Origin: Candidatus Caldarchaeum sp.
Lineage (GTDB): Archaea > Thermoproteota > Nitrososphaeria_A > Caldarchaeales > Caldarchaeaceae
Length of the DNA: 18,935 bases
NCBI GenBank assembly: GCA_038844785.1
Contig: JAWBRA010000029.1
Location: 1-18,935 of the forward strand
Direction: 5' to 3'
The translations under genes and the position numbers were made by a program. Shown here in pieces: positions 1 through 17,602 of this stretch. Position 1 is the first letter of the stretch. Each line of letters opens with the position of its first letter. The notes below the pieces were generated by a model. It was not told where the DNA came from. It saw nothing but the letters and a program-made list of their open reading frames with translations, and did not search any database.

Positions 1-225
1 CAGAACTTTGACACCACGCCTGAGAACCTCTATGAATTCATCTGTGAGCTCTACGGGAATTGTGTCCACGTAGAGCTCGTCGCCCTGCTCTGCTGGAATC
101 TCTGAAACCCTCGAAACCCTGTAGAAGCCTTCTCCGTCATTGGAATATACATGATGTTGTTCATCGTTCTTCCTACTGCGGTTCTTGTTCGCCAGCCTGT
201 GAACATCGGCGTAGAACCTTCTTAC
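1..225 (-). CDS. N-terminal part of a divergent IS110-like (DEDD/RuvC-fold) transposase/recombinase, truncated by the window edge; start codon uncertain
   Basis: Not in the ORF track. Manual minus-strand translation is open to position 1: VRRFYADVHRLANKNRSRKNDEQHHVYSNDGEGFYRVSRVSEIPAEQGDELYVDTIPVELTDEFIEVLRRGVKVL. FYADVH resembles the IS110 GIDV strand, and LYVDT...L..GV.V resembles the second acidic strand and helix. GGAGG precedes a GTA codon at 225-223 (possibly a mutated GTG). The nearest in-frame ATG is at 360-358. Confidence 0.55.
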
Positions 226-231
226 TTCCCT

Positions 232-260
232 CCCGAGAGGTTTATAAGCCTCTTTTCGGG
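232..260 (+). promoter_or_regulatory. Archaeal BRE/TATA promoter (CCGAGAGG-TTTATAAG) inside an imperfect inverted repeat; possibly bidirectional
   Basis: TTTATAAG at 241-248 with a purine-rich BRE upstream. Flanks CCCGA-GAGG and CCTC-TTT-TCGGG are complementary. The expected start site (~271) coincides with the start of the structured region. Confidence 0.55.
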
Positions 261-270
261 GACAATTCTC

Positions 271-810
271 CGTCGGTCGTGTCCACCCCTCCCCTCCGCA
301 CGCCCGGCCTTGTCGGCTCGGGGCGGCGTCCCAACCCCGAACCGCTCCCCGCCACGTCATATGACTGAGGCCCGGGAGCGGGCCCTCCCTTATCCCTGGG
401 AGCAGGTCCTACAACCATGTCTCCTGACATGGCTCTCCCGGGAGGCCTAGGCCGCCGGAGAACCATTCTCCAGCGGAAGGCCCTCCCATCGGGGAAAATG
501 TTGAAGGGGTGTTTGGGATGGATGTGGAGGACGTCGTCAAGCATCGTCGTCTGTCTCCCTACCCCACATCTGTCGGTCCGAGCGAACCGTCCCAAGGCTA
601 GGCTCCAGCCAAACCTTCCCCCGCCACCCCACAGCATTTAGGAAGGGGTGGCCGCCTTCTACGGCGGTGTGGGTGAGGGTTTGTGCCTGTGTTTCGCGGA
701 TGTTTTCCCATGCGTGGTCGCGGGACGACCTATTCATCCAACCCCCTCCCCGCCTAGAGGGGATGGCCTCAGGGCTTCAACCCATCACGGGACCATCGTC
801 CCGGTCATTA
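271..810 (+). ncRNA. Candidate large structured non-coding RNA next to the IS110-like gene
   Basis: GC-rich (46/60 in 301-360) with no credible protein. Stems include CTCCGCA 294-300/TGTGGAG 523-529, CGTCCCAA 327-334/TTGGGATG 513-520, GGCCCG 369-374/CGGGCC 379-384, CCATGTC 415-421/GACATGG 426-432, 452-462/466-476, AAACCTTC 611-618/GAGGGTTT 675-682 and CGGGAC 788-793/GTCCCG 798-803. Most wobble pairs read as G-U on the plus strand, but the strand is not certain. Confidence 0.5.
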
Positions 811-858
811 CATGTTTGTTCAACTCACATGGATTTAAGCAGATAGGTGGCGTTGGGT

Positions 859-875
859 GGCTCTGTTAACTTAAG
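859..875. repeat. IS6 terminal inverted repeat
   Basis: GGCTCTGTTAACTTAAG, exact reverse complement of 1509-1525. Confidence 0.9.
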
Positions 876-1478
876 CCATCTCCATCACCCCTTTTATGCT
901 GTTCATCAGGTGTAGCGTCTCTGGCTGGTTGAATATGTGGAATAGGTTCAGCCATCTCCATACATGCCCTAGAATGCATGCTTTCTTCCTGCATAGGAAA
1001 TGGTTCTATCCTTGAGCATCTGTACAGCCCTCTCCATGGCTTGGAACAGCCAATCCCCAAACCTGTACCTACGATGCTCAAGACCAAGCCTAGCGCATGC
1101 CTCAGGATACCAAGGCGCTCCATCTGTCCAGACTGGATGCTTACCGTAAGCCATGACAAGGCTCCGTAGGAACATCTCAGCCTGTATGCCGTTCATAGCT
1201 AGAATCCAAGGGTTCTTTTGCTGAAAGGCTCGTAGGCAACCCACACCCATGCCATAAGCCCTTTAACCATGACAGCAGCCTCATCCACAAGGAATAGGGG
1301 TACACTACATCTAGCCCTGAAGAACTTTCTGAACCCTGGGAGCCTCTGAACCCACTCCCAGACAGCCACATGACTCCTGCCGACGAAAGGCTTAAGCGCA
1401 TCTAAAGCTCAGGCCTAGGGATACGAGGTAAAGCCCGTAGAGGACAGCAGGTAAAGCCGTCCTCCAACCAACAAACAT
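871..1478 (-). pseudogene. IS6-family DDE transposase pseudogene
   Basis: Fragments in different frames: MFVGWRTALPAVLYGLYLVSLGLSFR, RSHVAVWEWVQR, FLVDEAAVMVKGLMAWVWVAYEP, VWTDGAPWYPEAC, MERAVQMLKDRT. Several frameshifts and stops. Confidence 0.85.
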
Positions 1479-1508
1479 AACAAAACAACCACAGCCCTAG
1501 GCAAAGAC

Positions 1509-1525
1509 CTTAAGTTAACAGAGCC
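1509..1525. repeat. IS6 terminal inverted repeat
   Basis: CTTAAGTTAACAGAGCC, exact reverse complement of 859-875. Confidence 0.9.
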
Positions 1526-1589
1526 GAAAAATGGGTACTGCTATGTTGTTCGTTGCTGGTTTATGCCTTAGAGAGGGAGAGTGTTGGGT

Positions 1590-1950
1590 CCATAGGATGA
1601 GGCTGTTGAGAAGGTATTCGGCTGCAGGGTCTACCTATGGTCTGCTGTAGACGTGGATGCAGGGGAGATAATAGCTGTGTATTCTTCTAGGGGTAGGTCT
1701 ATCCTAAACGCGCCAACATTCCTAGGAATGTTCTGGAAACATGCGATGGCAAGCCAGTAATAGTGGTGACAGGGGTCCATGGTATCAATGGGCTTTGAAC
1801 AGGCTTGGAATAGAATACCTCCATGAAACGTTTGGGGAGGGCCTACAACAACAAAAAGACGGTCAAGAGTATCGAGGAGATAGCCACAGCCATAGCCCTA
1901 ACACACAACATACGCATAGAAACCAGGATGGAAGGAGGAGTATTACCATG
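1590..1950 (+). pseudogene. Second IS6-family transposase remnant, different subtype, internally deleted
   Basis: Frame-broken fragments DEAVEKVFGCRVYLWSAVDVDAGEIIAVYSSRGRS, DRGPWYQWALNRLGIEYLHETFGE and KTVKSIEEIATAIALTHN match IS6 DDE motifs. The third catalytic segment appears missing and no inverted repeats were found. Confidence 0.75.
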
Positions 1951-1975
1951 AAATTTTGCTGGTATGCTTTACATG

Positions 1976-2701
1976 CGTGACGCTCCGTGACGCAAATATA
2001 CCGCGGTTTACAAAACTGTATTCCGGGAAAGGGTTTGAACAAACATATTCCCAACGGCGAAACTTTCGCAGAAATATTCCGTAAAATGGCGGAAGACAAG
2101 CTTTTCCAAGAACTGGTAAAAAGGTCAAGCCTAACCATGAAGCAGGCGGAAACCCTTTTCTTCGACGTGATGTCACACCGTGACGGCTTGATGTTAACTG
2201 CAGAACAGCGTGCCGCGCTACGCGGCGTCACGAAAGGCTCATTCATAAGGACAAAGCAACAAGCGTTGCGCAATATCTCAAAAGCTCTCTTCACCCTCAT
2301 ACTTTTAAGCTATCTCGGTCTTGTCAAACTCCCCGAATACCGGTGGTTTTTCAGGTTGAGCGAAGCTTTTGAGGAGCGGGACTGGGAGGCTGTCAAGGAG
2401 TTTCTCATCTCGCTGGAGGGTTGAGGAGTGGTTTGGAGGCTTTAACAGCCGTCTTCGCCCTTCTTTTCCTGACCCAGACAGCCATTTTCATCTATCTTTA
2501 CAGAAGAGCTGTGACAAACCGTGATGTCACGGTAAAAAGAGAAAATCACACCACATCACAGCAACCAACTCAAAATCCTCAGCCCACATCATACCCAGCG
2601 ACACCCGAGAAAACAAAGGAGCTGCCGACATTAAACGAGTCGGCTTTGGCTGCTCTGAGGCTCATTAGGGAAAGGGGGAGCGTGATATCAAGTGATGTCA
2701 G
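1976..2701. repeat. Dispersed cluster of GTGA(nn)TCAC / CGTGACG motifs, often in 10-bp phase
   Basis: CGTGACGC at 1976 and 1986; GTGATGTCAC 2167-2176; CGTGACG 2179; CGTCACG 2226; GTGAC 2511; ACCGTGA-TG-TCACGGT 2518-2533; ATCACA 2545 and 2555; GTGATATCAA 2682 and GTGATGTCAG 2692. Confidence 0.7.
2035..2424 (+). CDS. Archaeal hypothetical protein, probable HTH-like DNA-binding protein
   Basis: ORF 1987..2424; likely start is TTG 2035 or ATG 2086. Contains SSLTMKQAETL and a helix-turn-helix-like LTAEQRAALRGVTKGSFIRTKQQA, then hydrophobic LFTLILLSYLGLV. The stop overlaps the next start (TTGA). Confidence 0.75.
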   Translation: MNKHIPNGETFAEIFRKMAEDKLFQELVKRSSLTMKQAETLFFDVMSHRDGLMLTAEQRAALRGVTKGSFIRTKQQALRNISKALFTLILLSYLGLVKLPEYRWFFRLSEAFEERDWEAVKEFLISLEG

Positions 2702-2906
2702 CCGAAGCCTGAACCTCAGCAGGGAACATACAGCCCGCCTCATGAAAAACCTCTACGAAATGGGGCTGGCGACCCGATCCGGCAAGCCTTATAAATACAG
2801 CTTAACCGAAAATGGATTATCGATAATTGCTTTAAACGAAACCAAAAACCACGATTCGCCAATGCTTATTAATCATAAGAGCCGATCAAAGTCCTGTCTC
2901 GAATAA
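2421..2906 (+). CDS. Membrane-anchored winged-helix (MarR-like) DNA-binding protein
   Basis: N-terminal transmembrane helix (ALTAVFALLFLTQTAIFIYLYRR), a Q/P/T-rich linker and a C-terminal wHTH (SSDVSRSLNLSREHTARLMKNLYEMGLATRSGKPYKYSLTENG). Confidence 0.85.
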   Translation: MRSGLEALTAVFALLFLTQTAIFIYLYRRAVTNRDVTVKRENHTTSQQPTQNPQPTSYPATPEKTKELPTLNESALAALRLIRERGSVISSDVSRSLNLSREHTARLMKNLYEMGLATRSGKPYKYSLTENGLSIIALNETKNHDSPMLINHKSRSKSCLE

Positions 2907-3193
2907 AGAATGGCTTCTTCCAACTTTTCGGGAGTGGGATTAACACTATAGCCCTTGAGCGTGTAGACAATCAGCCTCTCCCTAGAGTCTGCGAATTTCG
3001 TTAAATCATTTTTTAAACGCTGTTTATCTAAGGGAAGCTCCTGCATTTCTTCAGCGGTGACGGACGATGAGTCGGACCTTCTGATTATATACAGATACAT
3101 TTTGGCAACAAAAAACGTCAGCAGCATCAGGTCCTCGCGCTCAGGAATATTAAACAACAAATATACATCACCTTTAATTGAAACACGAAACAA
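2873..3193 (-). CDS. Hypothetical wHTH-like protein, probably 5'-frameshifted (may extend to ~3277)
   Basis: 106-aa ORF resembling the adjacent pseudogene product (FRVSIKGDVYL...LMLLTFFVAK...VTAEEM). An upstream frame LVIDSQTLRKIYTKYEKII joins it across an A6 run near 3200. Confidence 0.55.
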   Translation of the reverse strand: MFRVSIKGDVYLLFNIPEREDLMLLTFFVAKMYLYIIRRSDSSSVTAEEMQELPLDKQRLKNDLTKFADSRERLIVYTLKGYSVNPTPEKLEEAILYSRQDFDRLL

Positions 3194-3278
3194 TTATTTT
3201 TCATACTTTGTGTAGATTTTTCTGAGTGTCTGGCTGTCTATAACTAGTGTTTGATGTCTGGAGCGTTTGTGCTGCAAC

Positions 3279-3689
3279 TTAACTATAGGTCTCTTTCAGT
3301 GTTTCGAGCCTCTTAGACAGCCTGTTCATCAGACTCTTGATGCCACTTACCGTGATTTCATACACGCCTCTTTCCTTGCGAATTATCTCGCCACGGACGG
3401 CACTTTCCGCGAGGCGTGCTGCTGCAACTTTCTTCGGCAGGTTTGTTTCGGTCACTATTTCTTCAAATCCTACCTCGGCTGTGGGTGTGAGACCTGCAAT
3501 GTTCACCAGCTTTTTCCGTCAGGTAGAGAAGCAGCAGGTCAGTTGAGGTGGCATTAGCTCTGTCGCGCAGACAAAAACTTTTCCATGCTCTGTAATTCGG
3601 AGAAATTCCTTGAAAAACTTCACATCTTCGGGTGTTATTTCCTCTTTTACGACAAGCTCCTTCTTTATCAGTTCTTTGAGCTCATCCAT
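3279..3689 (-). pseudogene. Frameshifted winged-helix protein
   Basis: ATG 3689 gives MDELKELIKKELVVKEEITPEDVKFFKEFLRITEHGKVFV, with an in-frame TGA at 3521-3519. A shifted frame supplies DRANATSTDLLLLYLT, then the original frame resumes KKLVNIAGL...NLPKKVAAARLAE...RGVYEIT (wHTH). This suggests two compensating indels. Confidence 0.65.
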
Positions 3690-3781
3690 CCTAACCTTTT
3701 ACAACCTTTGGTGATTATAAACGTTAGGAGCACAGTTGGGTTCTGGTATGCGGGTTTGTTAATAAGTTGGTTATATAGTGG

Positions 3782-3789
3782 TTTATATT
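3782..3789 (+). promoter_or_regulatory. TATA box of the permease gene (likely leaderless mRNA)
   Basis: TTTATATT begins 32 nt upstream of ATG 3814. Confidence 0.5.
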
Positions 3790-3813
3790 TTGGGTTCTGC
3801 GACGGCTAAGTAT

Positions 3814-5112
3814 ATGAAGATTAGGCTTCCGCCTGAATGGGGTCCTGAGCCTGTTCCGAAGGAGGCGCGTCAGCTCAGGTTCTTCGACTACTTCGTTCTT
3901 TGGTCGAGCTTAGGTGTTGGCTTACTGGTCATGGTTGCAGGTTCTTTCCTTTCCTCGCTCAGCTTGGTTGAGGTTTTGGCTGTGGCTGTCGCGGGCTCTG
4001 TCATCGGCAGCCTGATGCTTGCTATCGCTGGCGCCGTTGGCAGTAGGTATGGTGTTCCAACCATGGTAAGCTTGAGGCCTGTTCTCGGGTTGAGGGGTAG
4101 CTACGTCCCGACGGCGCTCAACATCGTGCAGCTGGCTGGCTGGACTGGGTTCGAGGTGATGATCATGGCTCAGGCTGCCTCCGTTTTGACTGGCTGGCTT
4201 TTCGGCAGCCTCAGCTTCCCCATCTGGGTTATTGTGTTCAGCTTATGGTGTCTGCTTCTGGCTTTGGGAGGGCCTCTCATCGTCGTCAGGAAATGGCTTG
4301 AAAGAATTGCGATATGGCTTGTCTACGCATCATCCATCTGGATAACATACATGGTGGTCAGCTCCCCCGGCTTCGGTAAATGGTTCACAGCCAGCAGCCC
4401 CGAAGCAATCCCCCTACTCCTGGCTCTCGACCTCGTCGTCGCCATGCCTATATCGTGGTGGCCTCTTGTCTCGGACTACAACAGGTTCTCCGTCAAACAG
4501 TCGGGAAGCTTCCTCGGAACGCTAAGCGGATACACAGTGGCCAACACATGGTTCTACTTCCTCGGAGCAGCTCTCGTAGCGGTGCTGGGGATAAACGACA
4601 TAATATCTGCGATAGGAGCTCTCTTCCTCGGAAACGCAGCCCTGCTGCTCATATTGGTCGACGAGACGGACAACGGCTTCGCAGACATCTACTCATCAGC
4701 GGTCTCCTTCCAGAACATCTTCACCAAGACGCCGCAGTGGTTTTTCGCCGCTTTCACAGCTGCGGCAGGAGCTGTTCTCGCCTTAGCCGTCCCACTTATG
4801 CAGTATGAATGGTTCCTATTGTTGATAGGGTCGCTGTTCGTCCCGCTTCTCGGAGTCGTGGCTTCCGAGTTTTTCATAAACAGGAGAGCCGACCCGCCGT
4901 CGGTTGACGAGTTTTACCAGCCAGGCGGCTTTAAACCCGGAAGCTTCATAGCCTGGGCCGCGGGAATCGCCGTCTACGTAGCCATAGTCCAGCTGGCTCC
5001 AAACATCGGAGCATCCATCCCATCCTTCCTCGTCTCCGTCGCCGTATCAGCCGCCGCCCACCAAATAGCCAAGCGTGTTATAAAGCCAGCTACAGAGAAA
5101 ATAGCCAAATGA
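3814..5112 (+). CDS. NCS1 family purine/cytosine permease, CytX-like (putative hydroxymethylpyrimidine transporter)
   Basis: About 12 transmembrane segments; motifs GVPTMVSLRPVLGLRGS, NIVQLAGWTGFE, MPISWWPLVSDYNRF and NGFADIYSSAVS. Start set at MKIRLPPEWG (3814) using the TATA position. Confidence 0.9.
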   Translation: MKIRLPPEWGPEPVPKEARQLRFFDYFVLWSSLGVGLLVMVAGSFLSSLSLVEVLAVAVAGSVIGSLMLAIAGAVGSRYGVPTMVSLRPVLGLRGSYVPTALNIVQLAGWTGFEVMIMAQAASVLTGWLFGSLSFPIWVIVFSLWCLLLALGGPLIVVRKWLERIAIWLVYASSIWITYMVVSSPGFGKWFTASSPEAIPLLLALDLVVAMPISWWPLVSDYNRFSVKQSGSFLGTLSGYTVANTWFYFLGAALVAVLGINDIISAIGALFLGNAALLLILVDETDNGFADIYSSAVSFQNIFTKTPQWFFAAFTAAAGAVLALAVPLMQYEWFLLLIGSLFVPLLGVVASEFFINRRADPPSVDEFYQPGGFKPGSFIAWAAGIAVYVAIVQLAPNIGASIPSFLVSVAVSAAAHQIAKRVIKPATEKIAK

Positions 5113-5262
5113 AACGGCCTGTTTTATAGCGGTGGTTGATGGGCTGAACCACGCAGGTGATAGGCTGAGAGGGTTAAAGACGCTTTTCGCCGCCAAAGCT
5201 TAGACTAGACCCCTCATGTTTTTCTTCGCTTTCTGGGATTGTATCGGTTTAGGAAGTGTTAA

Positions 5263-5297
5263 GTATCAGGGGTGATACGTTGTATCGGGGGTGATAC
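5263..5297. promoter_or_regulatory. Tandem palindromic operator-like sites overlapping the ATPase start
   Basis: GTATCA-GGGG-TGATAC (5263-5278) and GTATCG-GGGG-TGATAC (5282-5297), plus a half-site GTATC at 5241. Confidence 0.65.
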
Positions 5298-6400
5298 TTC
5301 TGCTCTTCGACCCGAGACCCAAAGAGCGGATAGAGGAGCTTTTCGGCAGGGAGGAGGAGGTTAAACTGCTTACGAAGGCGATAGCTACCCCGGTAACGCT
5401 GCTTTTAGGTGTTAGAAGGGTTGGGAAGACATCGCTTTTAAAATCCTTCCTCAACAGCCTAGAAATCCCCTACATATATCTTGACTTGAGGATCTTAGAG
5501 GACTCCGGATACAGCAGGGCGCAGCTGTATCGCTTGCTTTCAGACGCCGTTTCAAACTGCACATCCAAATGGAAGAAAATGCTTGAGTGCTTCAGAGGCG
5601 TAAAAGGTGTCAGCATCTCAGGCTTCAGCGTGGAGTTCGACTGGCGAGAGCAAGCTCTCACCATAACAACCCTCCTGAACAGACTGAACGACTACGCGCT
5701 GAACAGGACGGACAGAGGTTTCATCGTAGCTTCGTTCGACGAGGCACAGCTTCTCAGGTTTCTGGCAGGCGGTAAAGGGAGAATGGATTTTAGAAGCATA
5801 ATGGCTTACGCCTACGACAACCTGAGAGGCCTGAGGTTTATACTTACAGGGTCTGAAGTTGGACTGTTGCTGCATTTTCTAGGACTTGATGACGCTTCAA
5901 GCCCGCTGTATGGGAGATACACCAGCATCGTAAGGGTTGAAAGGTTCTCTAAAGACAGGTCGATAGAGTTCCTGAGCGGCGGCTTCAGAGAAGTTAATAT
6001 GAATGTGAGCGATGACATACTGGAGGCTATCGTGGAGAAGGTTGACGGCATCCCTGGCTGGCTAACCTACTTCGGCTACATGTGTCTCGAATCTGGCGGC
6101 GTATCGAAAGAAGCCATTAAAGCGGTGACGGAAAAGGCGTTAGGGCTTGTTGAAAAGGAACTTGAAAAACTGTTTAAAAGGTCAGTCCTGTACAAGCATG
6201 TGCTCAAAGCCATCTCGATTGGTGAAACATCATGGAGCGGCGTCAAAAGGGCTGTTGAAGCATGGATTGGGAGGAGGCTCACGAACGCGGAGATAACCAG
6301 ATCCCTCAACAATCTGATAAACCTAAGCATTCTGGAAAGAACGGGAGATGAATACAGAATAGCCGACCCGCTAGTAGCTGAATACTGCAGAAAATTCTGA
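5291..6400 (+). CDS. Archaeal AAA+ ATPase (ATPase_2 type) with C-terminal winged helix
   Basis: LFDPRPK...LFGREEE N-terminus, Walker A GVRRVGKT, Walker B SFDEAQ, ILTGSEVG, SPLYGR, DGIPGWL and C-terminal YRIADP. Confidence 0.92.
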   Translation: MILLLFDPRPKERIEELFGREEEVKLLTKAIATPVTLLLGVRRVGKTSLLKSFLNSLEIPYIYLDLRILEDSGYSRAQLYRLLSDAVSNCTSKWKKMLECFRGVKGVSISGFSVEFDWREQALTITTLLNRLNDYALNRTDRGFIVASFDEAQLLRFLAGGKGRMDFRSIMAYAYDNLRGLRFILTGSEVGLLLHFLGLDDASSPLYGRYTSIVRVERFSKDRSIEFLSGGFREVNMNVSDDILEAIVEKVDGIPGWLTYFGYMCLESGGVSKEAIKAVTEKALGLVEKELEKLFKRSVLYKHVLKAISIGETSWSGVKRAVEAWIGRRLTNAEITRSLNNLINLSILERTGDEYRIADPLVAEYCRKF

Positions 6401-6627
6401 CGACCTTGATGTGGAAGTGCTGGCTACATGCGGAGCGGTTTTCAGGCATGTTTTCCACCGTCAACTGTAAAGACATCATGCTGAATGCTTCGCTCCAAGC
6501 AGAACATTAACATTTACATCCATCAAAGGCTTAAAAGCCGTAAAACGGCTCAGAGAGGACCGTTTTGAAGAATGCGGTAAGAGCCTGCTTGCAGATATAA
6601 ATCTAAGGGTATTAGCTTACGCTAGAC

Positions 6628-7659
6628 ATGGAGAGGCTTGTTCACGGTCTTCACCATATCACTCTCGTGGCTTCAAACTACATAGTCAACTACAGGTTTT
6701 ACACAGGGGCTCTCGGCTTGAGACAGGTCAAGCTTTCCGTCAACCAAGACGACATTTTCCACAGGCATGCTTTTTACGCAAACCCCGACAAGCCTACCGG
6801 CAGCGCGATAACCTTTTTCGAATGGCCTGGTCTTCCCCACGGCTATCCTGGGCTGGGTTCTCCACATCATCTGGCTTACCGGGTTAAATCGGTTAAAACG
6901 CTTGCCAAATAGTTTGGCTGGCTTCGGCTAAACGGTGTAAAAGTAAGCGGCCTCCACATCTACGGCGGCCTTGTCTCAATATACTTCCGCGACCCTGACA
7001 ACGCTCTGATCGAGCTGACAACAGTTGACGAAGGCCTTGAGAAAGATTATGTGTGGGAGGTTTTCCAAGATTTAGAAGACGTTAAAGCGGTTGATGCGGA
7101 CATGAAGATAATGTGGTTTGACCATGCTACTCCGCTGGCTATGAACGCAGGTGTTTTGAAACGGTTTTTGGAGAAGTTTCTACAGTTGAAGGAAGCGGAG
7201 GTTGTTGAAGATGATGCTGGCCGTGTCTGGCTCATGGTCAAAAGCGATGAACATGTTTTTCTCCGGTATCTCGTAAACACCTCCGCCGAATATGGCTACG
7301 TGGGCCGAGGCTCAATCCACCACATAGCCTTGGCCGTGGAGTCTGAGGCGGAACAGAGAACGATCTTGCGTAGGCTAGACATGGCTTATGTTAGAAACTC
7401 GGGCATAGTTGATATGTTTTGGCTCCGCTCCCTCTACTTCAGAGATCCGTTCGGGAACTTGATGGAGGTTGCCACCGTAGGGCCCGGATATGATGTTGAC
7501 GAGCCGCGTGAAAGCATGGGAAGCAGGCTTGTTCTCCCGCCTTGGCTCGAGCCCGTTAGAAATATGATTGAAGCACGGCTCGCCGAACAGGACGCTAGGA
7601 ACAATCCTTCATGGCCGCCTGTTTGCGACGAAGTCCCACAGACTCCCGAACCGCTGTAG
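6628..7659 (+). pseudogene. VOC/glyoxalase-family ring-cleaving dioxygenase (MhqO/PcpA-like) interrupted by one in-frame TAG
   Basis: ORFs 6628..6912 and 7051..7659 are in the same frame and the sequence between them is open (FGWLRLNGV...IYFRDPDNALIEL). Motifs GLHHIT, SVNQDD, ITFFEWP, GSIHHIA, SLYFRDP and LVLPPWLE. TAG at 6910-6912. Confidence 0.85.
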
Positions 7660-8245
7660 GCTTGGGAAGTATTATCACACCTTCATCCGGGTTTCCCAGC
7701 TCTTCGCATAACCCCCTCCACCACATGTAGGCAGCAAGGGCGCACGTTACTGCATCGGCTTCATCGCCCGTTATCTTCGTGGACAATCCTTTCACCCCAA
7801 GCTTTCTAAGACCTTTCACGAGTTTGGCGACTCCTTGCTGTTTTCTAGGAAGCCCAAGAACGTCTTGAACGCCGCCGGGATACGTTTCATAGACCTTTAC
7901 ACCCATTTGTCTCAGGACTGCTGCAAGCTTCATTCCACGGGCTGTCAGCATACGCATGGGGCCGATGGTTATCGGGAAAAACTTAATCCTCCTACGTCGA
8001 AGCTCTATGTCGCAGAGCCTAAAATGCGGCGGACCCGGTTCCTCCAAGCTTTCCCTTCCACGGGGCAGGCCGAGGGGTGCGTCAACACCCACTACAGCGG
8101 GCTTCAGCACTTCAACGTCGGCGATTATTTCGTCGTCGGAGAAACGCACCCACGTCCTGCAGCTCATATCCTCATCCAACAAAGCCATTCCCGAAGGTCT
8201 TCTAACGCTGCCGGCTAGGTCAACACCTAAAAATACAACAGCCAT
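7595..8245 (-). CDS. DUF429 family protein (predicted RNase H-fold nuclease)
   Basis: FLGVDLAG, VGVDAPLGLP, R.CD.EL, VYETYPG and DEADAVTCA motifs. ATG at 8245 (ORF track starts at 8251). Confidence 0.85.
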   Translation of the reverse strand: MAVVFLGVDLAGSVRRPSGMALLDEDMSCRTWVRFSDDEIIADVEVLKPAVVGVDAPLGLPRGRESLEEPGPPHFRLCDIELRRRRIKFFPITIGPMRMLTARGMKLAAVLRQMGVKVYETYPGGVQDVLGLPRKQQGVAKLVKGLRKLGVKGLSTKITGDEADAVTCALAAYMWWRGLCEELGNPDEGVIILPKPTAVRESVGLRRKQAAMKDCS

Positions 8246-8369
8246 CCCCAAAACACAGCCTGTAGCAGCAATTAAACATGTGACTCCCTATTAACCAAAA
8301 TATTTAGGGGTATATGTCTCACCGTTTTCTTGGCATGATGTATTACAGGAATTTTTTTGTTCAAGCAGT

Positions 8370-8535
8370 AGCGTTGAGCTATACGCAGGCCCGACAGCTC
8401 GTCGCCAAGGCCTGAAAAGAAATCGCTTAAGAGACTCAACCTGGTCGAGAGTAGGGGGATGAATGAACCCCTCCTCCCTGCATAATCACATGCGTGAAGG
8501 TAGTTGGGAAGCCGAGAGTCGGAAAATTAAGCGGT
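8370..8535 (+). ncRNA. Candidate structured intergenic RNA or mobile-element end
   Basis: Nested stems CAGGCC 8386-8391/GGCCTG 8409-8414, CGCTTAA 8424-8430/TTAAGCG 8527-8533 and GACTC 8433-8437/GAGTC 8516-8520, plus the hairpin AGGGG-GATGAATGAA-CCCCT. Confidence 0.3.
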
Positions 8536-8607
8536 GAGGCTGATAAATAATTTTTTGACGTGCTTTCATGCAAACTATAAAACTACGGTGTTGCGACAGT
8601 ATGTGAC

Positions 8608-9573
8608 ATGAGGCTGGTAACCTTTCACAACCCATACCTGCAAAAGCCTAGGCTGGGAATAGTTTACGGCGAACACGTCGTCGACGGAAGCAACGCTTTC
8701 GCCGCGATACTACGGGACGAGGGTGAGGAAGATGCTGAAATCCTAGCCGAAGCCCTTCTGCCAAGCAGTATGATAGGTTTTTTGAGAAGAGGTAGGAGGG
8801 CTTGGGAGTCCGCTGAACGTGTGTTGTTTAAGGCTAGAAGCTTTGTGAACAACGAGTACGGCGAAGGATATGCTTTCAAGCTTTCCGACGTAAGGCTATA
8901 CGCTCCAATACCACGGCCTGGTAAGATAATCCACACTGCTGGAAACTTCAGAGAACATGCGCAGGAGGCTGAGAAAGCCAAATGGGAGTTCCCAATACCC
9001 CAGTGGATATCTTTCCTCAAAAGCCCCTCAGCAGTTATAGGTCCTTACGACAACATAGTCTACCCCAAGTTTACTAAAGAGCTGGACTACGAGCTTGAGA
9101 TGGCTGTGGTAATAGGGAGACGTGGCAAATACATCCCTAGGGAGAGGGCTTTTGAACACGTCGCCGGCTTTATGGTCTTCAACGACGTGACAGCAAGGGA
9201 CATCCAGCGGCAGGAGATGAAAAACGGCCTTCTCAACTTCGGTAAAAACCTTGACACGTTCGCGCCGATGGGGCCCTGTCTGGTTACAAAGGATGAGATT
9301 CACGACCCACACAATCTGAGGATGGAGCTACGGGTCAACGGCGAGGTCAGGCAGTCAGGAAACACCAACCGACTGTCTGTTACGCTCCAAGAGATAATAG
9401 AGCATTATTCATGGGTTATGCTCGAGCCGGGCGACATAGTTACCACGGGAACGATATCTGGGGTGGCTGCTTTCAGAGAAAACCCTGAAAGATACTATCT
9501 GAAGCCAGGCGACGTCGTGGAGTCTGAGATAGAAAACATTGGAGTGATGAGGAATAAGGTTGTGGCGGAGTGA
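8608..9573 (+). CDS. Fumarylacetoacetate hydrolase family protein
   Basis: PGKII, FLKSPSAVIGP, LDYELEMAVVIG, FNDVTARDIQ, GKNLDTFAPMGP and LEPGDIVTTGT. Confidence 0.93.
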   Translation: MRLVTFHNPYLQKPRLGIVYGEHVVDGSNAFAAILRDEGEEDAEILAEALLPSSMIGFLRRGRRAWESAERVLFKARSFVNNEYGEGYAFKLSDVRLYAPIPRPGKIIHTAGNFREHAQEAEKAKWEFPIPQWISFLKSPSAVIGPYDNIVYPKFTKELDYELEMAVVIGRRGKYIPRERAFEHVAGFMVFNDVTARDIQRQEMKNGLLNFGKNLDTFAPMGPCLVTKDEIHDPHNLRMELRVNGEVRQSGNTNRLSVTLQEIIEHYSWVMLEPGDIVTTGTISGVAAFRENPERYYLKPGDVVESEIENIGVMRNKVVAE

Positions 9574-10784
9574 ACAGCTTGTCCCAAGAGCCTTGGAGAA
9601 GCGATAAACACTGGGTAAGTCCCTACAACTTCTCGGATAAAGTCGCCCGCCATCTCAGGTTCCCTGATAAGATCGAGATACATGATGTAACACTACGAGA
9701 CGGCGAGCAAACACCCGGCGTGGTTTTGAAGGCAGATGAAAAGCTGGATATTGCGAAGGCTTTGGACGAGCTTGGCGTCCACAGGATAGAGGCAGGCATG
9801 CCTGTTGTCTCGAAAGAGGATTTCATCGCCGTCAAGCAGATAGCGAACGAGGGGTTGAGGGCCAAGGTTTTCGGGTTTGCGCGTCTGGTGAAGGAAGACA
9901 TAGACGCGGCCGTTGAAGCAGATGTAGCGGGTATTGTGACGGAAGGGCCTGTTGGTGTTCCCAAGCTGATGCAGTTCGGCTGGAAAGCTGAGGACGTTGT
10001 CACAAAAGCGTTGGAGCATGTCGACTACGCCAAAGACCATGGCCTGTACACGGTTTTCTTCGGGGTTGACGGCACAAGGGCTGACCTCAGCTTCCTTAAG
10101 CATGTTTACAGAAAGGTTGTCGAAGAGGCTAAAGCCGACGCCGTGGCTGTTGTCGACACGTTTGGATGCGCAACGCCCGAGGGGTTCAGGTATCTCGTGG
10201 GCGAAATCGTCGAAAGTGTGTCTGTTCCCGTGGAGGTCCACTGCCACAACGATTTCGGAATGGGTACGGCAGTCAGCATAGCAGGCCTCTCAGCGGGGGC
10301 TAGCGTCGTCCACGTATCCGTCAACGGAATAGGGGAGAGAGCAGGCAACGCAAGCCTCGAAGAAGTAGCCCTCAGCCTCGAGCTTCTCTACGGCAGAAAG
10401 CTTGGGCTGAAATACGAGAAGCTTGTTGAAGTCTCTAAGCTTGTCGAGAGGATGACCCGCTTCAGCCTTGCTGCCAACAAGCCTGTCGTCGGAGAAAGAG
10501 TCTTCACAAGGGAGTCGGGCATATCTGTCGCAGGCTGGATAAAATATCATCTCGGGTCTGAAGCCTTTCTACCCGAGCTGGTGGGCAACAGACACGACGT
10601 TCTAGTGGGTAAGAAAAGCGGCCGCCATTCCGTGGAGTGGAAGCTCAGCCGCCTTGGCGTCGAAGCTAAACCGGAGGAAATCCAGCTCCTGCTTGAGAAA
10701 ATCAAGCAAAAATCTCTGGAGAAGAAGGGGCCTTTAACCGACGAGGAGCTACTTGAATGTCTTCAAACGGTGAGGCAGGGATAG
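9570..10784 (+). CDS. DRE-TIM metallolyase, homocitrate/isopropylmalate synthase-like, without a LeuA regulatory domain
   Basis: DVTLRDGEQTPG, RIEAG, VHCHNDFG, NGIGERAGNASLEE, NKPVVG and GKKSG. GTGA overlap with the upstream gene. Confidence 0.88.
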   Translation: MNSLSQEPWRSDKHWVSPYNFSDKVARHLRFPDKIEIHDVTLRDGEQTPGVVLKADEKLDIAKALDELGVHRIEAGMPVVSKEDFIAVKQIANEGLRAKVFGFARLVKEDIDAAVEADVAGIVTEGPVGVPKLMQFGWKAEDVVTKALEHVDYAKDHGLYTVFFGVDGTRADLSFLKHVYRKVVEEAKADAVAVVDTFGCATPEGFRYLVGEIVESVSVPVEVHCHNDFGMGTAVSIAGLSAGASVVHVSVNGIGERAGNASLEEVALSLELLYGRKLGLKYEKLVEVSKLVERMTRFSLAANKPVVGERVFTRESGISVAGWIKYHLGSEAFLPELVGNRHDVLVGKKSGRHSVEWKLSRLGVEAKPEEIQLLLEKIKQKSLEKKGPLTDEELLECLQTVRQG

Positions 10785-11833
10785 AGCTTTTACAGGTTTT
10801 AAGTCCTTCAGGCGAAATCGTAGGCGAGCCTGACCCGACGCTGACCAACGACGTTCTCTTAAGGATGATGAAAGACATGGTGAAGGCTCGTCTCTTCGAC
10901 GAATGGATGCTCAAAATACATCCGCTTGGAAAAGCTTCGAGGTACGCGCCCTGCGAAGGACAGGAGGCATCTATGGTGGGAAGCGCATACAGCGTCCGCG
11001 AAAACGACTGGCTTTTCCCAACCTACCGCGAGTACCCGGTTGCTTTGGCGCGGGGCGTGCCGTTGACAGACATAATGCATAGAATGTTCGCTGACAGCAA
11101 AGACCTGTTGAAAGGCCATGAGATAACGCTGTACGGCGACCGAAGGTATAGAATTGTTGTGGGGGCTGGAGCTGTTTCACTTATGGCTCCTGTAGCGGTG
11201 GGAATGGCGATGGCCGCCGGCATAAGGCATGAGAAAGACGTTTTCATGGTCTACATGGGCGAAGGAGCGACATCCAAGGCCGACTTCCACGAAGCAATAA
11301 ACTGGGCTGGTGTTTTCAAAACGCCGGTTGTCTTCTTCTGCCAAAACAACCAGTGGGCCATTTCAACCCCTTTCAACAAGCAGACAGCAGCCCCTAACGT
11401 GGCTGTCAAAGCAAAAGCGTATGGAATACCTGGCGTAAGGGTTGACGGCAACGACATCATGGCCGTCTACACAGTATGCAGGGACGCTGTGGAGAGAGCA
11501 CGAGCGGGTAAAGGCCCTACGTTAATCGAGGCTGTGACTTACAGGATAGGGCCGCATACAACAGCTGACGACCCTTCAAGATACAGGTCTGAAACAGAGG
11601 TGGAGAAGTGGCGTGAGCTGGACCCGTTAAAAAGGTTGAGAAAATACATGACTAAAAACCGTCTCTGGAGCGATGAGAAGGAGAAAACCTTAGTTGAAGA
11701 ATTCCGAGCCGAGCTTAGAAAAGCAACTGAGGAAGCCCTCCAAACCCCGCCGCTAACGCCTTCGGTTATATTTGAAGACGTTTACGCGACACCGCCATGG
11801 CATCTCGAAGAGGAGATGGATGAACTGGGTTGA
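10757..11833 (+). CDS. pdhA: 2-oxoacid (pyruvate or branched-chain) dehydrogenase E1 alpha subunit
   Basis: GQEA, PTYRE, TPP-binding motif GEGATSKADFHE...CQNN, VDGND and YRIGPHTTADDPSRYR. Substrate specificity cannot be determined from sequence. Confidence 0.88.
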   Translation: MSSNGEAGIELLQVLSPSGEIVGEPDPTLTNDVLLRMMKDMVKARLFDEWMLKIHPLGKASRYAPCEGQEASMVGSAYSVRENDWLFPTYREYPVALARGVPLTDIMHRMFADSKDLLKGHEITLYGDRRYRIVVGAGAVSLMAPVAVGMAMAAGIRHEKDVFMVYMGEGATSKADFHEAINWAGVFKTPVVFFCQNNQWAISTPFNKQTAAPNVAVKAKAYGIPGVRVDGNDIMAVYTVCRDAVERARAGKGPTLIEAVTYRIGPHTTADDPSRYRSETEVEKWRELDPLKRLRKYMTKNRLWSDEKEKTLVEEFRAELRKATEEALQTPPLTPSVIFEDVYATPPWHLEEEMDELG

Positions 11834-12690
11834 GCCTAAAGCCTTGGACAGTTACCCTAGCCGAAGTTGCCTGGCTAAAACCACATGAACAATCAATCCC
11901 CTCGCTGATTAACAGACTGGCTGGAGAAATCAAAAGCGTCGGCAGAATAAACCATCCCGTAATCGTTGACGCTGAAACAGGCCTAATCGTTGACGGAACA
12001 CACAGAGTTGAGGCAGCCTCAAAGCTAAGCCTCAGGCACATACCCGCCTACACGGTCGACTACGCATCTGACAGAGTGGTTTTGGAAAGCTGGGGGAGAG
12101 TTGTAAAAAAACAGTTAGAGAGACAGAAACTGCTCCAAAAAGCTAGGAGGATTGGTTTCAATATCTCAACCGCCAGCCTAGACATGAAATATTTTGTAAT
12201 ACAGCTGATTTGGCGAGACGGCGCAGTAACCAATCTGACGCTAGAGGAGGAGAACACGCAGAAGGTTTATGAAGCTGTTTCAAAGTTCGAGGCCGCCTTA
12301 CGTGGGTCTGAGATATCATACGTCGCTGAAAACGAAGTTTTGCCTGCGTTGGCTACTGGACAGTACTCACTGGGCTATCTTGTCAGAAAACTGCGGAAAC
12401 ACGAGGTTTTATCAATGGTCAAAGCAGGGGTGAAGCTTCCGCCAAAGTCAACACGACACATAGTTGACCGAAGACCCATGTATGTTCTCTGCCCACTAAG
12501 CGTTCTTTACAGCGAAAACGCCTCAAACCTGTTTGACGAATGGATCAAGGCGGGAAGATGGGTTGAGCTACCGCAGGGAATAGAGCTTGACAGAAAATAC
12601 GAAGAAAGGGTCGTCGTCTACTTTAGGGACGACCTTCAAAACCTTTATCCAGAAAAACTTTTGGATTTGTTGAAGGCTGTCAAGGCTTGA
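11830..12690 (+). CDS. ParB/Srx-domain protein, SerK-like free serine kinase
   Basis: KPHEQ, IVDGTHR, DY...W and LPPKSTRH resemble SerK/SbnI-type motifs. Adjacent to serA. Confidence 0.7.
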   Translation: MSLKPWTVTLAEVAWLKPHEQSIPSLINRLAGEIKSVGRINHPVIVDAETGLIVDGTHRVEAASKLSLRHIPAYTVDYASDRVVLESWGRVVKKQLERQKLLQKARRIGFNISTASLDMKYFVIQLIWRDGAVTNLTLEEENTQKVYEAVSKFEAALRGSEISYVAENEVLPALATGQYSLGYLVRKLRKHEVLSMVKAGVKLPPKSTRHIVDRRPMYVLCPLSVLYSENASNLFDEWIKAGRWVELPQGIELDRKYEERVVVYFRDDLQNLYPEKLLDLLKAVKA

Positions 12691-13603
12691 GTGTTTCGAT
12701 GATTTTCCGGGCCAGAAGTATTCCAGCGGCTTGCTGGGCTTCGCGTGTTTGAGCTCCTATGTGCGGTGTGACAACTACGTTGTTCAGCTCAAGCAGCTTG
12801 CTCCCGAAAGGCGGCTCTCTCTCAAAAACATCCAACCCCGCTCCGGCAAGCCTTCCAGTAGACAGAGCTTGGTAAAGAGCTTCCTCGTCAACAACCTCCC
12901 CCCTAGAAGCGTTGACCAGTATTGCAGAAGGCTTCATCATCGAGATCTTCTCAGCATCTATTAGATGCCGTGTCTCAGGGGTTAGAGGAACGTGCAGCGT
13001 GATAAAGTCCGACGACCTCAACACTTCTTCAAGCGTTGTAAGCCTGGTGCTTGTCTTGGCCAAAACCTCTTCAGGTATGGGGATGACGTCGTATGCAAGG
13101 ATTTTCATACCTATGGCGTAAGCTATTTCAGCAACCCTTCTGCCTATTCTCCCATAACCTATCACGCCCAAAGTTTTGCCTGCAAGCTCGACACCCATGG
13201 CTTCATGCTTAGGCCATATGCCAGATCTCATGACCTTATCACACCAAGCTATTTTACGTGCAACAGCTATCATCAAGCCTATCACGAGCTCGGCTACGCT
13301 GTTAGTCGGCGCCTCAGGGGTGTTCAGAACCTTCACACCATGCTTGGCTGCAGCCTCTACGTCAACGTTGTCCAGCCCAACGCCAGCCCTGCCAACAACC
13401 TTCAAAGCAGGCACGCCTTTTTCAATAACCTTCGCCGTCACCTTGGTGCGGCCTCTGACTATCAACACGTTGTAGCCGGATATCATCTCTTCAAGCTCCG
13501 CAGCCGAGATGTCGGGCTTCAAGTCAACAGCGAAGCCAGCCCCCCTCAGCATTTTAACAGACGTTTGGTCGATTGGGTCTGCTACAAGAACGCGTAATCT
13601 CAT
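12680..13603 (-). CDS. serA: D-3-phosphoglycerate dehydrogenase (short type, no ACT domain)
   Basis: GRAGVGLDNVD, SVAEL, GVIGYGRIG, HVPLTPET, NASRG and TPHIGAQT. Start ATG 13603 with TTTATATA about 29 nt upstream. Confidence 0.88.
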   Translation of the reverse strand: MRLRVLVADPIDQTSVKMLRGAGFAVDLKPDISAAELEEMISGYNVLIVRGRTKVTAKVIEKGVPALKVVGRAGVGLDNVDVEAAAKHGVKVLNTPEAPTNSVAELVIGLMIAVARKIAWCDKVMRSGIWPKHEAMGVELAGKTLGVIGYGRIGRRVAEIAYAIGMKILAYDVIPIPEEVLAKTSTRLTTLEEVLRSSDFITLHVPLTPETRHLIDAEKISMMKPSAILVNASRGEVVDEEALYQALSTGRLAGAGLDVFEREPPFGSKLLELNNVVVTPHIGAQTREAQQAAGILLARKIIETLKP

Positions 13604-13687
13604 AGAACAAGTCCCGCCAAGACATATATAAATCAGAGAACCTGTGGGAAACAAGTTTTAATAAGGCGCTGCACGCTGTTATCCGGC

Positions 13688-13972
13688 ATGCCTTTCAAGA
13701 GGAAAAGCAGGGGTAGGGCGAAGGGGGCTAAGGGTAAGGAGCCGACTGTTCAGTGCGACAACTGCGGCGCCTACGTGCCACGCAGCAAAGTGCAGAGAGT
13801 TACTAGACGTGTTTCGCTGGTCAGGGGAGACCTAGCTAGGGAGCTTAAGCAAGCGGGAGCATACTTGGCTGAGAACATAGTAGTCAAAAATCTTTGCATC
13901 AGCTGCGCCATACACTACGGCGTCCTCAAGGTGAGAGCCAGAGAAGAGAGAAAACCGGAGCAGTTCATCTAA
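13688..13972 (+). CDS. rps26e: 30S ribosomal protein S26e (eS26)
   Basis: KRKSRGRAKG, zinc-finger motifs CDNCG...VPRSK and CISCAIH..VLKVR. Confidence 0.96.
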   Translation: MPFKRKSRGRAKGAKGKEPTVQCDNCGAYVPRSKVQRVTRRVSLVRGDLARELKQAGAYLAENIVVKNLCISCAIHYGVLKVRAREERKPEQFI

Positions 13973-14025
13973 AATCATCTTATTTTGGGAATAGTTTATT
14001 AGAAAGAGGAGTCTGTTGGGTTTAG

Positions 14026-15003
14026 GTGACGGCTTTGTACACACCTTATGAAAGAGCTAGAATGTCTCTAGTCAAGCTGCGGATAGCTATGCTGGGAACA
14101 TGGGCTCTGATAACAGCATTAGCCTCGCTGCTTTTCATCGCCGTCCTATCCCTGCTGAGAGTTCCGCTACTCAACCTCTACACAATAATAGGGTTTGTCG
14201 TCTTCTTCCACGTCTTCCAATGGCTGATAGGACCGTACATTATAGGGGCTGTCTACCGTGTTAGGCCCGCGGCCGAGGCTGGGTTGGCGTGGGTTGAGGA
14301 AACGGTCAACAGGCTCAGCTCAGCCGCTGGAATGGAAAGACCGCCGAAAGCTTACGTCGCTGAAATCGATATACCTAACGCATTTGCATACGGAAGCCCG
14401 TTGACGGGGCCGATGGTAGCTGTCACACGAAGGCTTGTGGAAAGCCTTCCAAAAGAAGAGATTGAAGCCGTCATAGGACACGAGCTTGGACACATCAAAC
14501 ACCGAGACGTGGTCTTCATGATGGCTGTAAGCATAATCCCGGCAATAGTATACTATCTTGGCTACACTTTGTTCGTTTCCGGCGCCTACGGGGGAAGAAG
14601 GGAGGGAACAGCCTACGCAGCGCTAATAGGAATTGTTCTGATGGTTTTCAGCTTCATCTTCAACCTTTTCGTCTTCTACATGAGCCGTCTCAGAGAATAC
14701 TATGCTGACTACTTCGCCGCCAGAAACGTCCGAGACGGGGCCAGAAACCTTCAGAGAGCTTTGGTCAGGATAATGATGCTATCAGGAAGGCTGAGACGAC
14801 ATGAAGCTACACAGTATGAGCAGTTCAAAGCCTTCTTCATAGCAGACCCTGAAGTGGGTATTCAAGCCTACGGCGACGTAGACATGCTTGTGGAACGCGT
14901 GAAAAACTCAAAACCGAACACTGTGGCGGAGCTTTTCAGCACGCATCCAGACCCTGCGAAGAGGATTAGGGCCCTCGACAACTACGTTTTTAGTATGCCC
15001 TAG
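14026..15003 (+). CDS. htpX: Zinc metalloprotease HtpX (M48 family)
   Basis: Transmembrane helices, PNAFAYG, HELGH, SRLREYYAD and LFSTHP...RI. Confidence 0.93.
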   Translation: MTALYTPYERARMSLVKLRIAMLGTWALITALASLLFIAVLSLLRVPLLNLYTIIGFVVFFHVFQWLIGPYIIGAVYRVRPAAEAGLAWVEETVNRLSSAAGMERPPKAYVAEIDIPNAFAYGSPLTGPMVAVTRRLVESLPKEEIEAVIGHELGHIKHRDVVFMMAVSIIPAIVYYLGYTLFVSGAYGGRREGTAYAALIGIVLMVFSFIFNLFVFYMSRLREYYADYFAARNVRDGARNLQRALVRIMMLSGRLRRHEATQYEQFKAFFIADPEVGIQAYGDVDMLVERVKNSKPNTVAELFSTHPDPAKRIRALDNYVFSMP

Positions 15004-16423: not shown

Positions 16424-16441
16424 CCCTCCAAACGCAGACGT

Positions 16442-16462
16442 TAAACAATATTTAATTGTTTA
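16442..16462. promoter_or_regulatory. Perfect 8-bp inverted repeat over the proS TATA region
   Basis: TAAACAAT-ATTTA-ATTGTTTA, 19-39 nt upstream of the proS ATG. Confidence 0.4.
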
Positions 16463-16622
16463 TGTTTCTCTTCTTCCTAAGCCTTTGTTGCATTAGGGGC
16501 ACCTGTCTCTGTTAATGTTGGCCAAGCAGTGTCTTCACGGTGAATCAGCCTCTTCTGTGTCAAATAACAAACTTGTTTACAATAAATATGGATATAAACT
16601 AGCGTGTTTAGTTAATGATGAC

Positions 16623-17600: not shown

Positions 17601-17602
17601 AG

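Follow-up and report, generated by a model that had tools for sequence, protein, structure and literature searches.

An IS-like mobile element of Caldarchaeales archaea with a large structured leader RNA and a putative RuvC-Nop protein

We analysed a stretch of 18,935 nucleotides from a Candidatus Caldarchaeum genome of 57 contigs and 1.74 Mb (GenBank assembly GCA_038844785.1, contig JAWBRA010000029.1, positions 1 to 18,935). This stretch, contig C29 in our numbering, is hereafter called the window. Its first 855 nucleotides, read on the minus strand, are a doubly truncated copy of an insertion sequence (IS)-like mobile element of Caldarchaeales archaea. The copy holds the start of a gene for a putative RuvC-Nop protein and, upstream of it, a structured leader RNA. 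The gene is truncated by the contig end, and the upstream side of the element is replaced at 855/856 by an unrelated repeat. An earlier note on this DNA, made from the letters alone, had proposed that an IS110-like recombinase with an unusually large guide RNA lies here. That observation is real and richer than the note described, with "IS110-like" being right at the level of the superfamily and wrong in detail. The features of the window copy and its border are as follows.

1..222, minus strand: N-terminal ~73 codons of the putative RuvC-Nop (IS110/TasR-like) protein (open reading frame (ORF) scan, tblastn); the frame is open upstream to 360
198..261, minus strand: gene-start segment of ~62 nt including CTTATAAA; in frame it reads 'PRKEAYKPLGRE'
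262..855, minus strand: structured leader RNA with its 5' end at ~855; the promoter box upstream is cut away in the window copy
270..520, minus strand: leader core II, several hairpins and one long-range helix (compensatory changes in alignment A4; RNA reads)
560..700, minus strand: leader core I, a three-way junction and two hairpins (alignment A3; match of model R1 at 569-700 on the minus strand, 129.8 bits)
603..621, minus strand: 19-nt segment, with one mismatch in the window copy, whose complement lies just inside the right end of full copies
631..644, minus strand: variable hairpin loop of 14-17 nt, closed by the conserved stem CCACCCC/GGGGUGG and occurring as discrete alleles
700..855, minus strand: leader 5' module, which opens with the conserved CAACRCCACCUAUCYGCUUAAAUCCAUG
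781..811, minus strand: candidate kink-turn (K-turn)-like motif (R-U-R-AUGA, 6-bp hairpin, GUGA), read from the alignment by eye
859..1180, no strand assigned: unrelated repeat that abuts and truncates the element and is not part of it, 99% identical to C22:10036-10357

Copies and layout of the element

The gene at the locus was read from an open minus-strand frame (1..360) that holds the RFYADVH, LYVDT and LRRGVKVL motifs, as the earlier note had seen. Positions 4-222 on the minus strand correspond to residues 3-75 of a full homologue, the 285-aa protein encoded by the complete gene in contig C14, at 75% identity (tblastn). Positions 1-1000 had 38 DNA matches in the same genome (71-100% identity), many of them at contig ends. 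The recurrence of window 1-855 in pieces, 38 times across the genome, is more than expected by chance. The protein itself had 29 matches in this genome and occurs in 24 of the 61 genomes of the order, with a patchy distribution of 0-40 matches per genome (both by tblastn). Three copies in the complete genome of a relative, G026, share exactly 1612 bp with sharp ends.

A full copy of ~2.2 kb lies on contig C12. In the orientation of the gene it is composed of a left end, a small divergent zinc-ribbon ORF, a TTTAAAG box, the leader, the gene and a tail. Elements of this type have a GC-rich leader of 600-730 nt, a gene of 285 aa and a tail of ~170 nt that ends in a T-run. The C12 left end begins TCTTTCTTCTTGG and its right end reads ...GCCTCCAGCCAA.C.CTCCCCTTATTTTTTCC, followed by a tail specific to its group. 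The zinc-ribbon ORF (CxxC...CxxC, ~90 aa) is found at C12 41427-41693 (L008 1914-2180, plus strand), divergent from the leader, and also in C11; it had no Pfam match. The TTTAAAG box is conserved ~30 nt upstream of the leader start in all seven of the other copies examined. In seven other copies the leader starts CAACACCACC... and is preceded by a conserved ...GATGTTTAAAGCGTT... box. The window was searched for the promoter and zinc-ribbon part of its own copy, and none was found beyond 855.

Right-end tails and their flanks sort into about seven groups, and in the C12 and C24 copies TTGTAT can be seen by eye at each of the two junctions. Together, the right-end flank groups and TTGTAT are hints of a site preference. 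No verified empty site was found, and a blastn-short search for right ends in the loci of relatives yielded four ends, too few for use. At about C7:64248, ...TTTTTCCCTTTCCAGAAG is followed by the flank of the group-a right ends, with no element sequence upstream. This position may be an empty or remnant target site.

The gene-start segment at 198-261 shows 79-100% DNA identity in the 11 other copies listed. It is also 84-95% identical across subfamilies (C9, C24, C3, C2 and C6) whose proteins are only 32-41% identical. The copies in C9 and C12 share the whole leader and differ in gene type. A leader of one type joined to different genes, with 198-261 conserved between them, suggests recombination at this segment.

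Outside the element, the abutting repeat (window 859-1400) has shorter, 94%-identical copies at four contig ends (C31, C4, C55 and C54). It holds broken pieces of a minus-strand ORF, which had no Pfam match. Further into the window, positions 2421-2906 on the plus strand encode a 161-aa ORF with a hydrophobic N-terminus followed by a winged-helix HTH_27/MarR-type domain (E 3.4e-7).

Placement of the protein family

We used the full 285-aa protein of C14 to place the family. It had no Pfam match at E<=10 and no match in PDB when searched as a single sequence, and the sole NCBIfam hit was RNase HII (E 0.029), which at 14 bits is far below the cut-off of 350. Homologues fell into 162 clusters in a word-index search, mostly from metagenome-assembled genomes of Caldarchaeales or Ca. 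Caldarchaeum, and all listed names were 'hypothetical protein'. At E<=0.001 the family had 205 representatives among 1.84 billion sequences. No canonical PF01548 match was found in the genome that holds the window.

The most distant relatives were found with profile A2, built from the query and 34 distant members. Its best match among PDB sequences was 9MTY (E 2.9e-10, 42.6 bits, profile positions 83-252), which is TaTasR according to the available part of the preprint on repression by TIGR-Tas. The matched region includes the K-[ST]-D-E-N-D-A motif of the distant members. Further matches were TasH (E 1.6e-6), IS621 (E 0.0022) and ISCro4 (E 0.11). When the 35 sequences were searched against Pfam, DEDD_Tnp_IS110 was the sole family matched more than once (5 of 35, best E 0.0098). 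It (PF01548) was not among the 25 families listed for 45 close members, each of which had at most four matches. PF02371 and PF01798 had no match in the query or in the close or distant members, and no Nop5 chain in PDB was matched at E<=10. The predicted structure of the same protein in the ESM Atlas (predicted template modelling (TM) score 0.79, predicted local distance difference test 0.83) aligned at TM 0.70 over 261 residues with an IS110 transposase cluster, 98-100% of which carries PF01548/PF02371. By language-model features the protein scored 0.94-0.95 against viral clusters carrying Transposase_20.

The acidic residues of the RuvC-like domain were compared between the close and distant members. 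D8, D55 and D100 are invariant in all 45 close members. The close clade carries K-x-[A/S/G/T/N]-x-x-D where 29 of the 35 distant members carry K-[ST]-D-x-x-D-A, with D as the third DEDD acid. In the close members this position is A, S, G, T or N in 45 of 45 and never D. Therefore, the clade of the window has lost one of the four RuvC acidic residues.

Judged by its sequence and predicted fold, the protein is probably a deeply diverged member of the superfamily of RuvC, coiled-coil and Nop-domain proteins, which includes IS110 recombinases, TIGR-TasR/TasH and Nop5. Within this superfamily it appears to be nearest TasR by sequence.

A number of results weigh against this placement, including the third acid that is missing from every close member. 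A profile of the close family (A1) retrieved no IS110 or Tas structure from PDB, only coiled-coil noise (RF2, E 0.009). An hhalign comparison of A1 with six archaeal IS110 proteins was not significant (probability 0.14, E 0.43); it gave the expected C-terminal register, which we do not take as evidence. The evidence from the fold is that of the Atlas's own model. A conserved catalytic serine, S241 in IS621, defines the IS110 family. No serine is conserved in the C-terminal half of our protein, and none is invariant at 222-249 among 45 members; the best candidate column has S in 18, N in 17 and D in 6 of 45. Since the protein matches no Pfam family, has no such serine, has lost one acid and has TaTasR as its best solved relative, it is not a canonical IS110 recombinase. 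The earlier assignment to IS110 is thus upheld for the RuvC-Nop superfamily and not for IS110 proper.

Structure and expression of the leader

The leader stands out by its composition. GC content is 0.60-0.68 in 200-nt windows spanning 201-800, compared with 0.37-0.54 over the rest of 1-4000. The GC-rich stretch folds better than shuffled sequences on both strands (z -5.08 on the minus and -5.10 on the plus strand; 0 of 20 shuffles in each case). All ORFs in the stretch overlap others and none is supported as a gene. The strongly folding, non-coding stretch described earlier is therefore real, and it ends at 855 rather than at 840. No Rfam family was matched at gathering score in the whole window. 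At E<=10 over 1-1600 there were four weak matches, the best with E 0.68 and 17.5 bits against a gathering score of 45.

In BLAST comparisons the leader looked like a mosaic, with module borders at window 513/514, 592 and 666. Iterated profile searches with nhmmer showed that the seemingly different modules are diverged versions of one leader of ~620 positions. We aligned cores I and II from this genome and up to nine others. In core I (A3, 17 sequences) 93.5% of cells were paired, and 12 of the 27 pairs had changed on both sides, compared with 6.1 +/- 1.5 in shuffles (0 of 500). When the partners were slid, pairs changed on both sides reached at most 7. One row of A3 (G157c16) looks misaligned and was retained in these counts. 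Core II (A4, 20 sequences) had compensatory changes in 18 of 30 predicted pairs, and a single pair in one of its helices reads GC in 9, CG in 8 and UA in 3 sequences.

A covariance model of core I (R1) matched in 14 of 76 genomes of the order, 13 of which also carry the protein. Conversely, 11 of the 24 protein-positive genomes lack an R1 match, and 1 of the 37 protein-negative genomes has one. Of the 35 listed R1 matches, at least 18 have a family ORF 0.2-1.2 kb downstream on their own strand, and three clearly do not; the others lie at a contig end or were left out of the comparison with the listed family ORFs. The leader is thus a real conserved structured RNA of ~600 nt that co-occurs with the gene. 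As the earlier note held, it is far longer than the bridge RNAs described so far, which measure roughly 150-250 nt.

Two smaller elements of the leader vary among copies. The hairpin loop at 631-644 falls into discrete alleles, which appear shuffled among copies that differ in other respects. The motif at 781-811 begins with a box-C-like part (UGAUGA) in four of eight aligned copies; going by the general rules for K-turns and box C/D RNAs, we take it to be a candidate K-turn. The TATA-like CTTATAAA at 241-248 and CTTAAAT at 833-839 on the minus strand, both pointed out before as possible promoters, exist and lie in segments conserved among copies.

Several lines of evidence point to the strand of the gene as the strand of the RNA. 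G-U pairs outnumber A-C mismatches on the gene strand by 51 to 12 in A3 and by 75 to 5 in A4, a count biased by the fact that the pairs were predicted on that strand. Consensus folding with alifold gave -33.4 kcal/mol on the gene strand compared with -23.6 on the opposite strand, and -26.8 compared with -19.5. We also matched raw reads from ~5% of X4, a metatranscriptome run from a hot spring, at a likeness of >=90%. Over the gene (1-238) as well as the leader (273-612), plus-strand first mates outnumber minus-strand ones ~6- to 160-fold, and the opposite orientation amounts to 0.4-4% in the leader bins from 273 to 646. As reads of the gene and the leader share one orientation, both are transcribed in the same direction.

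Depth in X4 was 230-860 over most of 273-612 (67 in the bin 375-408) and 52-226 over the gene; the low depth over 613-850 is uninformative. Hundreds of X4 reads carry 9-36 extra letters at window 452-461 and 564-594. This implies that related copies in the sample have additional, hairpin-sized insertions in the leader. Among X1 contigs, 11 pieces matched, while runs X2 and X3 yielded no matching reads, which is uninformative. No joint spanning the GC-rich block was found in the X4 reads. Group II, bulge-helix-bulge and other introns were considered as candidates for the block and rejected, as there was no Rfam match, no reverse transcriptase and no read joint across it.

Role of the leader and relation to known systems

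We favour, with modest confidence, the explanation that this is an IS-like element with a diverged RuvC-Nop protein and a gene-strand structured leader that serves as the RNA partner of the protein. The leader would be the partner because this is so in every characterised branch of the superfamily. It could recognise the right end of its own element through a pairing of ~19 nt, i.e. donor-end recognition. Alternatively, the same pairing would hold the 5' and 3' parts of the transcript together. Further specificity may come from variable loops, and the allele pattern of the loop at 631-644 would look like a specificity element, though no match for it was found.

The pairing is clearest in the C14 element. 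Its 19-mer GGGGAGGGTTTGGCTGGAG occurs once in the leader on the gene strand, and a perfect complement lies 1368 bp downstream, before the terminal T-run. The 19-mer, found on both strands, thus flanks the gene, and two matches were seen in 0 of 200 shuffles. Pairs within three mismatches occur in four distinct elements from three genomes (C14, C9, G082:C4 and G178:C6). The two arms tend to depart from the consensus together, as in G163:C50, which has CTCT in both, and G157:C16, with GTGGTTGG/CCAACCAC. The right arm of C12 has an indel and a mismatch. In the leader the segment makes up the 3' strand of the helix that closes the junction and the 5' strand of the hairpin that follows. Any pairing to the right end, whether as DNA or as the 3' tail of the transcript, would therefore compete with the internal fold. 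The segment at 603-621 and its right-end complement may be either an inverted repeat or a site of pairing between RNA and element end. A guide role is a plausible proposal by analogy and from the right-end pairing.

Several observations count against the favoured explanation. First, some copies have no leader (the C11/C56/C2/C24 type), with only ~55 nt between the TTTAAAG box and the ATG in C11/C56-type copies; among these, at least C11 is frameshifted and C24 has a stop. Second, the 1612-bp copies of G026 (L061/L062/L065) have a 192-aa ORF on the opposite strand, without a Pfam match, in the place of the leader. Third, a DNA binding site whose two arms are kept alike by conversion would explain the inverted repeat equally well. 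Fourth, complementarity to targets, which the earlier note suggested looking for in the loops, was not found above background. The longest exact matches of the C12 leader to both junctions were 7-9 nt against a background of 7-12, and the local alignment of leader and right end scored 11.5, compared with a random 95th percentile of 12 and maximum of 17.5. Loop alleles matched the genome (<=2 mismatches) about as often as estimated for chance (~11 matches). Their only match inside an element apart from leaders, at C11:10921 in the 3' tail with one mismatch, is taken as chance. A resemblance of the loop to subterminal sequence of the left end, noticed by eye, is not counted as evidence. Complementarity of the leader to the left end or flanks did not exceed background either, and no two-loop layout was recognised. 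Finally, 2617 of the 2968 matched X4 reads were only 90-99% alike and fitted partially, so most come from related copies and do not define the ends of the RNA.

The genome of G026 has matches to core-I-like RNA elsewhere, for example at G026:C1:693103-693225.

The leader might instead be a cis-acting regulatory 5' untranslated region that governs translation or stability of the transposase mRNA, for example through the 19-nt 5'-3' helix or heat-dependent folding, rather than a guide. This is possible, and we doubt it. The leader is co-transcribed with the gene and abuts the start codon region, the partner of the 19-nt segment lies in the transcript's own 3' tail just before the T-run, leaderless copies exist and no target complementarity was found, all of which fit this explanation. 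Conversely, 600-730 nt with a three-way junction and many covarying helices exceed what known regulatory leaders need. Read depth is several-fold higher over the leader than over the gene, and the hairpin loop occurs in discrete, shuffled alleles. The characterised relatives of the protein all bind a dedicated RNA, as far as the available parts of two sources go (10.1101/2024.06.21.599552, PMC12045711).

Another explanation, which we consider unlikely, is that the GC-rich block is a separate non-autonomous insert, such as a nested mobile RNA gene or an intron-like element, that came to lie in the 5' region of the element and does not work together with the protein. In its favour, copies that have the block (C12-type) and copies that lack it (C11-type) differ at fairly sharp borders, and the make-up of the block is mosaic by the BLAST breakpoints. 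In C6 (L074), the 3' half of the leader and the gene start (1073-1375 and 2606-2656) are split by ~1.2 kb of coding-like DNA. Against an insert, the modules prove by nhmmer to be diverged forms of a single RNA, the listed matches of the model (35) include at least 18 that stand upstream of a family ORF on its strand and only three that clearly do not, the 19-mer pairs and co-varies with the right end of the element, and X4 reads show no splice-like joint across the block. The split arrangement of C6 has a 99.5% identical counterpart in another genome (L053, G163).

A TIGR-Tas system is very unlikely. In such a system the leader would be a TIGR array of the stem-loop type, and its processing would supply a nuclease resembling TasR with short dual-spacer guides. 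TaTasR is the best solved match to the protein by sequence and is similar in size. Both share the layout of RuvC, coiled coil and Nop domains and have no catalytic serine, and the leader has many hairpins. In the available part of one source (PMC12045711), TasR has archaeal (Thermoproteota) representatives, stem-loop arrays are described for some Tas clades, and a TIGR array consists of alternating 8-12-nt repeats and ~9-nt spacers or of tandem box C/D stem-loop units. We found no such periodic repeats in the leader or the full C12 locus: a repeat search gave only short families of two to three copies, and Tandem Repeats Finder gave two 19-nt rows in the C12 locus. Unlike the interchangeable units of an array, the helices of the leader are individually conserved across genera and form a junction, so that the RNA is one large conserved fold. 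Unlike TasR, the Caldarchaeales gene lies in a dispersed multicopy element.

An RNA from the plus strand, divergent from the gene and starting from the TATA-like box at 241-248, which the earlier note had leaned towards, is scarcely credible and already contradicted: although that strand folds as well in the single-sequence test (z -5.10) and the box is nearly palindromic, stranded reads share one orientation over gene and leader, the minus strand has few A-C mismatches relative to its G-U pairs, and alifold favours it over the plus strand. In addition, the sequence containing the box reads in frame with the N-terminal extensions of other family members and is homologous to them.

The element with its putative protein and leader partner can also be compared with known systems. 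Like IS110/IS1111 elements (IS621, ISCro4), it is a single-gene mobile element with many copies, and its protein has the N-terminal RuvC-like D...D...K-x-x-x-x-D at the same spacing and a helical C-terminal part. The predicted fold (TM 0.70) and the profile match to IS621 (E 0.0022) agree with this likeness. Both have a structured RNA from the non-coding stretch 5' of the gene, transcribed with the gene, part of which is complementary to an element end. The right-end flanks of the Caldarchaeales element form groups, as a site preference would predict. Unlike them, the Caldarchaeales protein has no PF01548/PF02371 match, lacks the conserved serine and lacks one acidic residue. Its RNA is 600-730 nt long, with a three-way junction rather than two internal loops, and the complementarity to the end is one block of ~19 nt. 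The element also has the extra divergent zinc-ribbon ORF, and some of its copies are leaderless.

The archaeal box C/D ribonucleoprotein (Nop5, L7Ae and C/D small RNA) belongs to the same superfamily, as given in the available parts of the same two sources (10.1101/2024.06.21.599552, PMC12045711). It too is found in archaea, and the leader 5' module has, by eye, UGAUGA ... UGA flanking a hairpin. In contrast to this machinery, the Caldarchaeales protein has no PF01798 match and mostly keeps its acidic residues, it is carried by a mobile element and its RNA is ten times longer. The RuvC-like domain of Nop5 is inactive and binds fibrillarin, whereas three acidic residues are invariant in our protein. 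The TnpB/IscB proteins of IS200/IS605 elements with their omega RNA resemble it as transposon-borne RuvC proteins with an adjacent large RNA that overlaps the element end, while the arrangement of the protein fold and the RNA (no Rfam match) are unrelated. In IS200/IS605 the RNA is encoded 3' of tnpB, and movement of the element depends on a separate TnpA.

A full-text literature search found no paper on this Caldarchaeales family or element; the supplementary tables of the TIGR-Tas and IS110-Nop5 papers may list members. Within the scope of that search, no RNA of the leader's kind, large, folded and expressed, has been described so far. In the available part of a preprint presenting a non-coding atlas, bridge-RNA loci were selected by the Pfam architecture PF01548 + PF02371. 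A survey selecting loci in this way would miss the Caldarchaeales family.

More tentatively, the element could represent a third RNA architecture among Nop-domain guides, and we think this rather improbable as a whole. It would be an archaea-specific mobile RuvC-Nop element with a K-turn-bearing, multi-junction RNA of ~600-730 nt, a ~19-nt recognition of the right end and exchangeable loops that recognise insertion sites. According to the available part of one preprint, the root of Nop5 is not occupied by any extant IS110 clade of archaea (10.1101/2024.06.21.599552). If the third architecture is true, the element, as a TACK family that surveys based on Pfam cannot detect, could be the kind of archaeal lineage whose absence from its database is noted in the IS110-to-Nop5 hypothesis. 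The RNA would also be of interest for genome-editing tools if it guides DNA recognition through the ~19-nt block.

The RuvC-Nop superfamily connects bridge-RNA recombinases, TIGR-Tas nucleases and the box C/D machinery of archaea and eukaryotes. A branch that is invisible to Pfam, restricted to archaea and actively multiplying, with a much larger RNA that is expressed and covarying, broadens the known range of RNA partners in this superfamily. It also offers a thermophile system of protein, RNA and element ends in which to ask how the guide RNAs of the superfamily grew or shrank.

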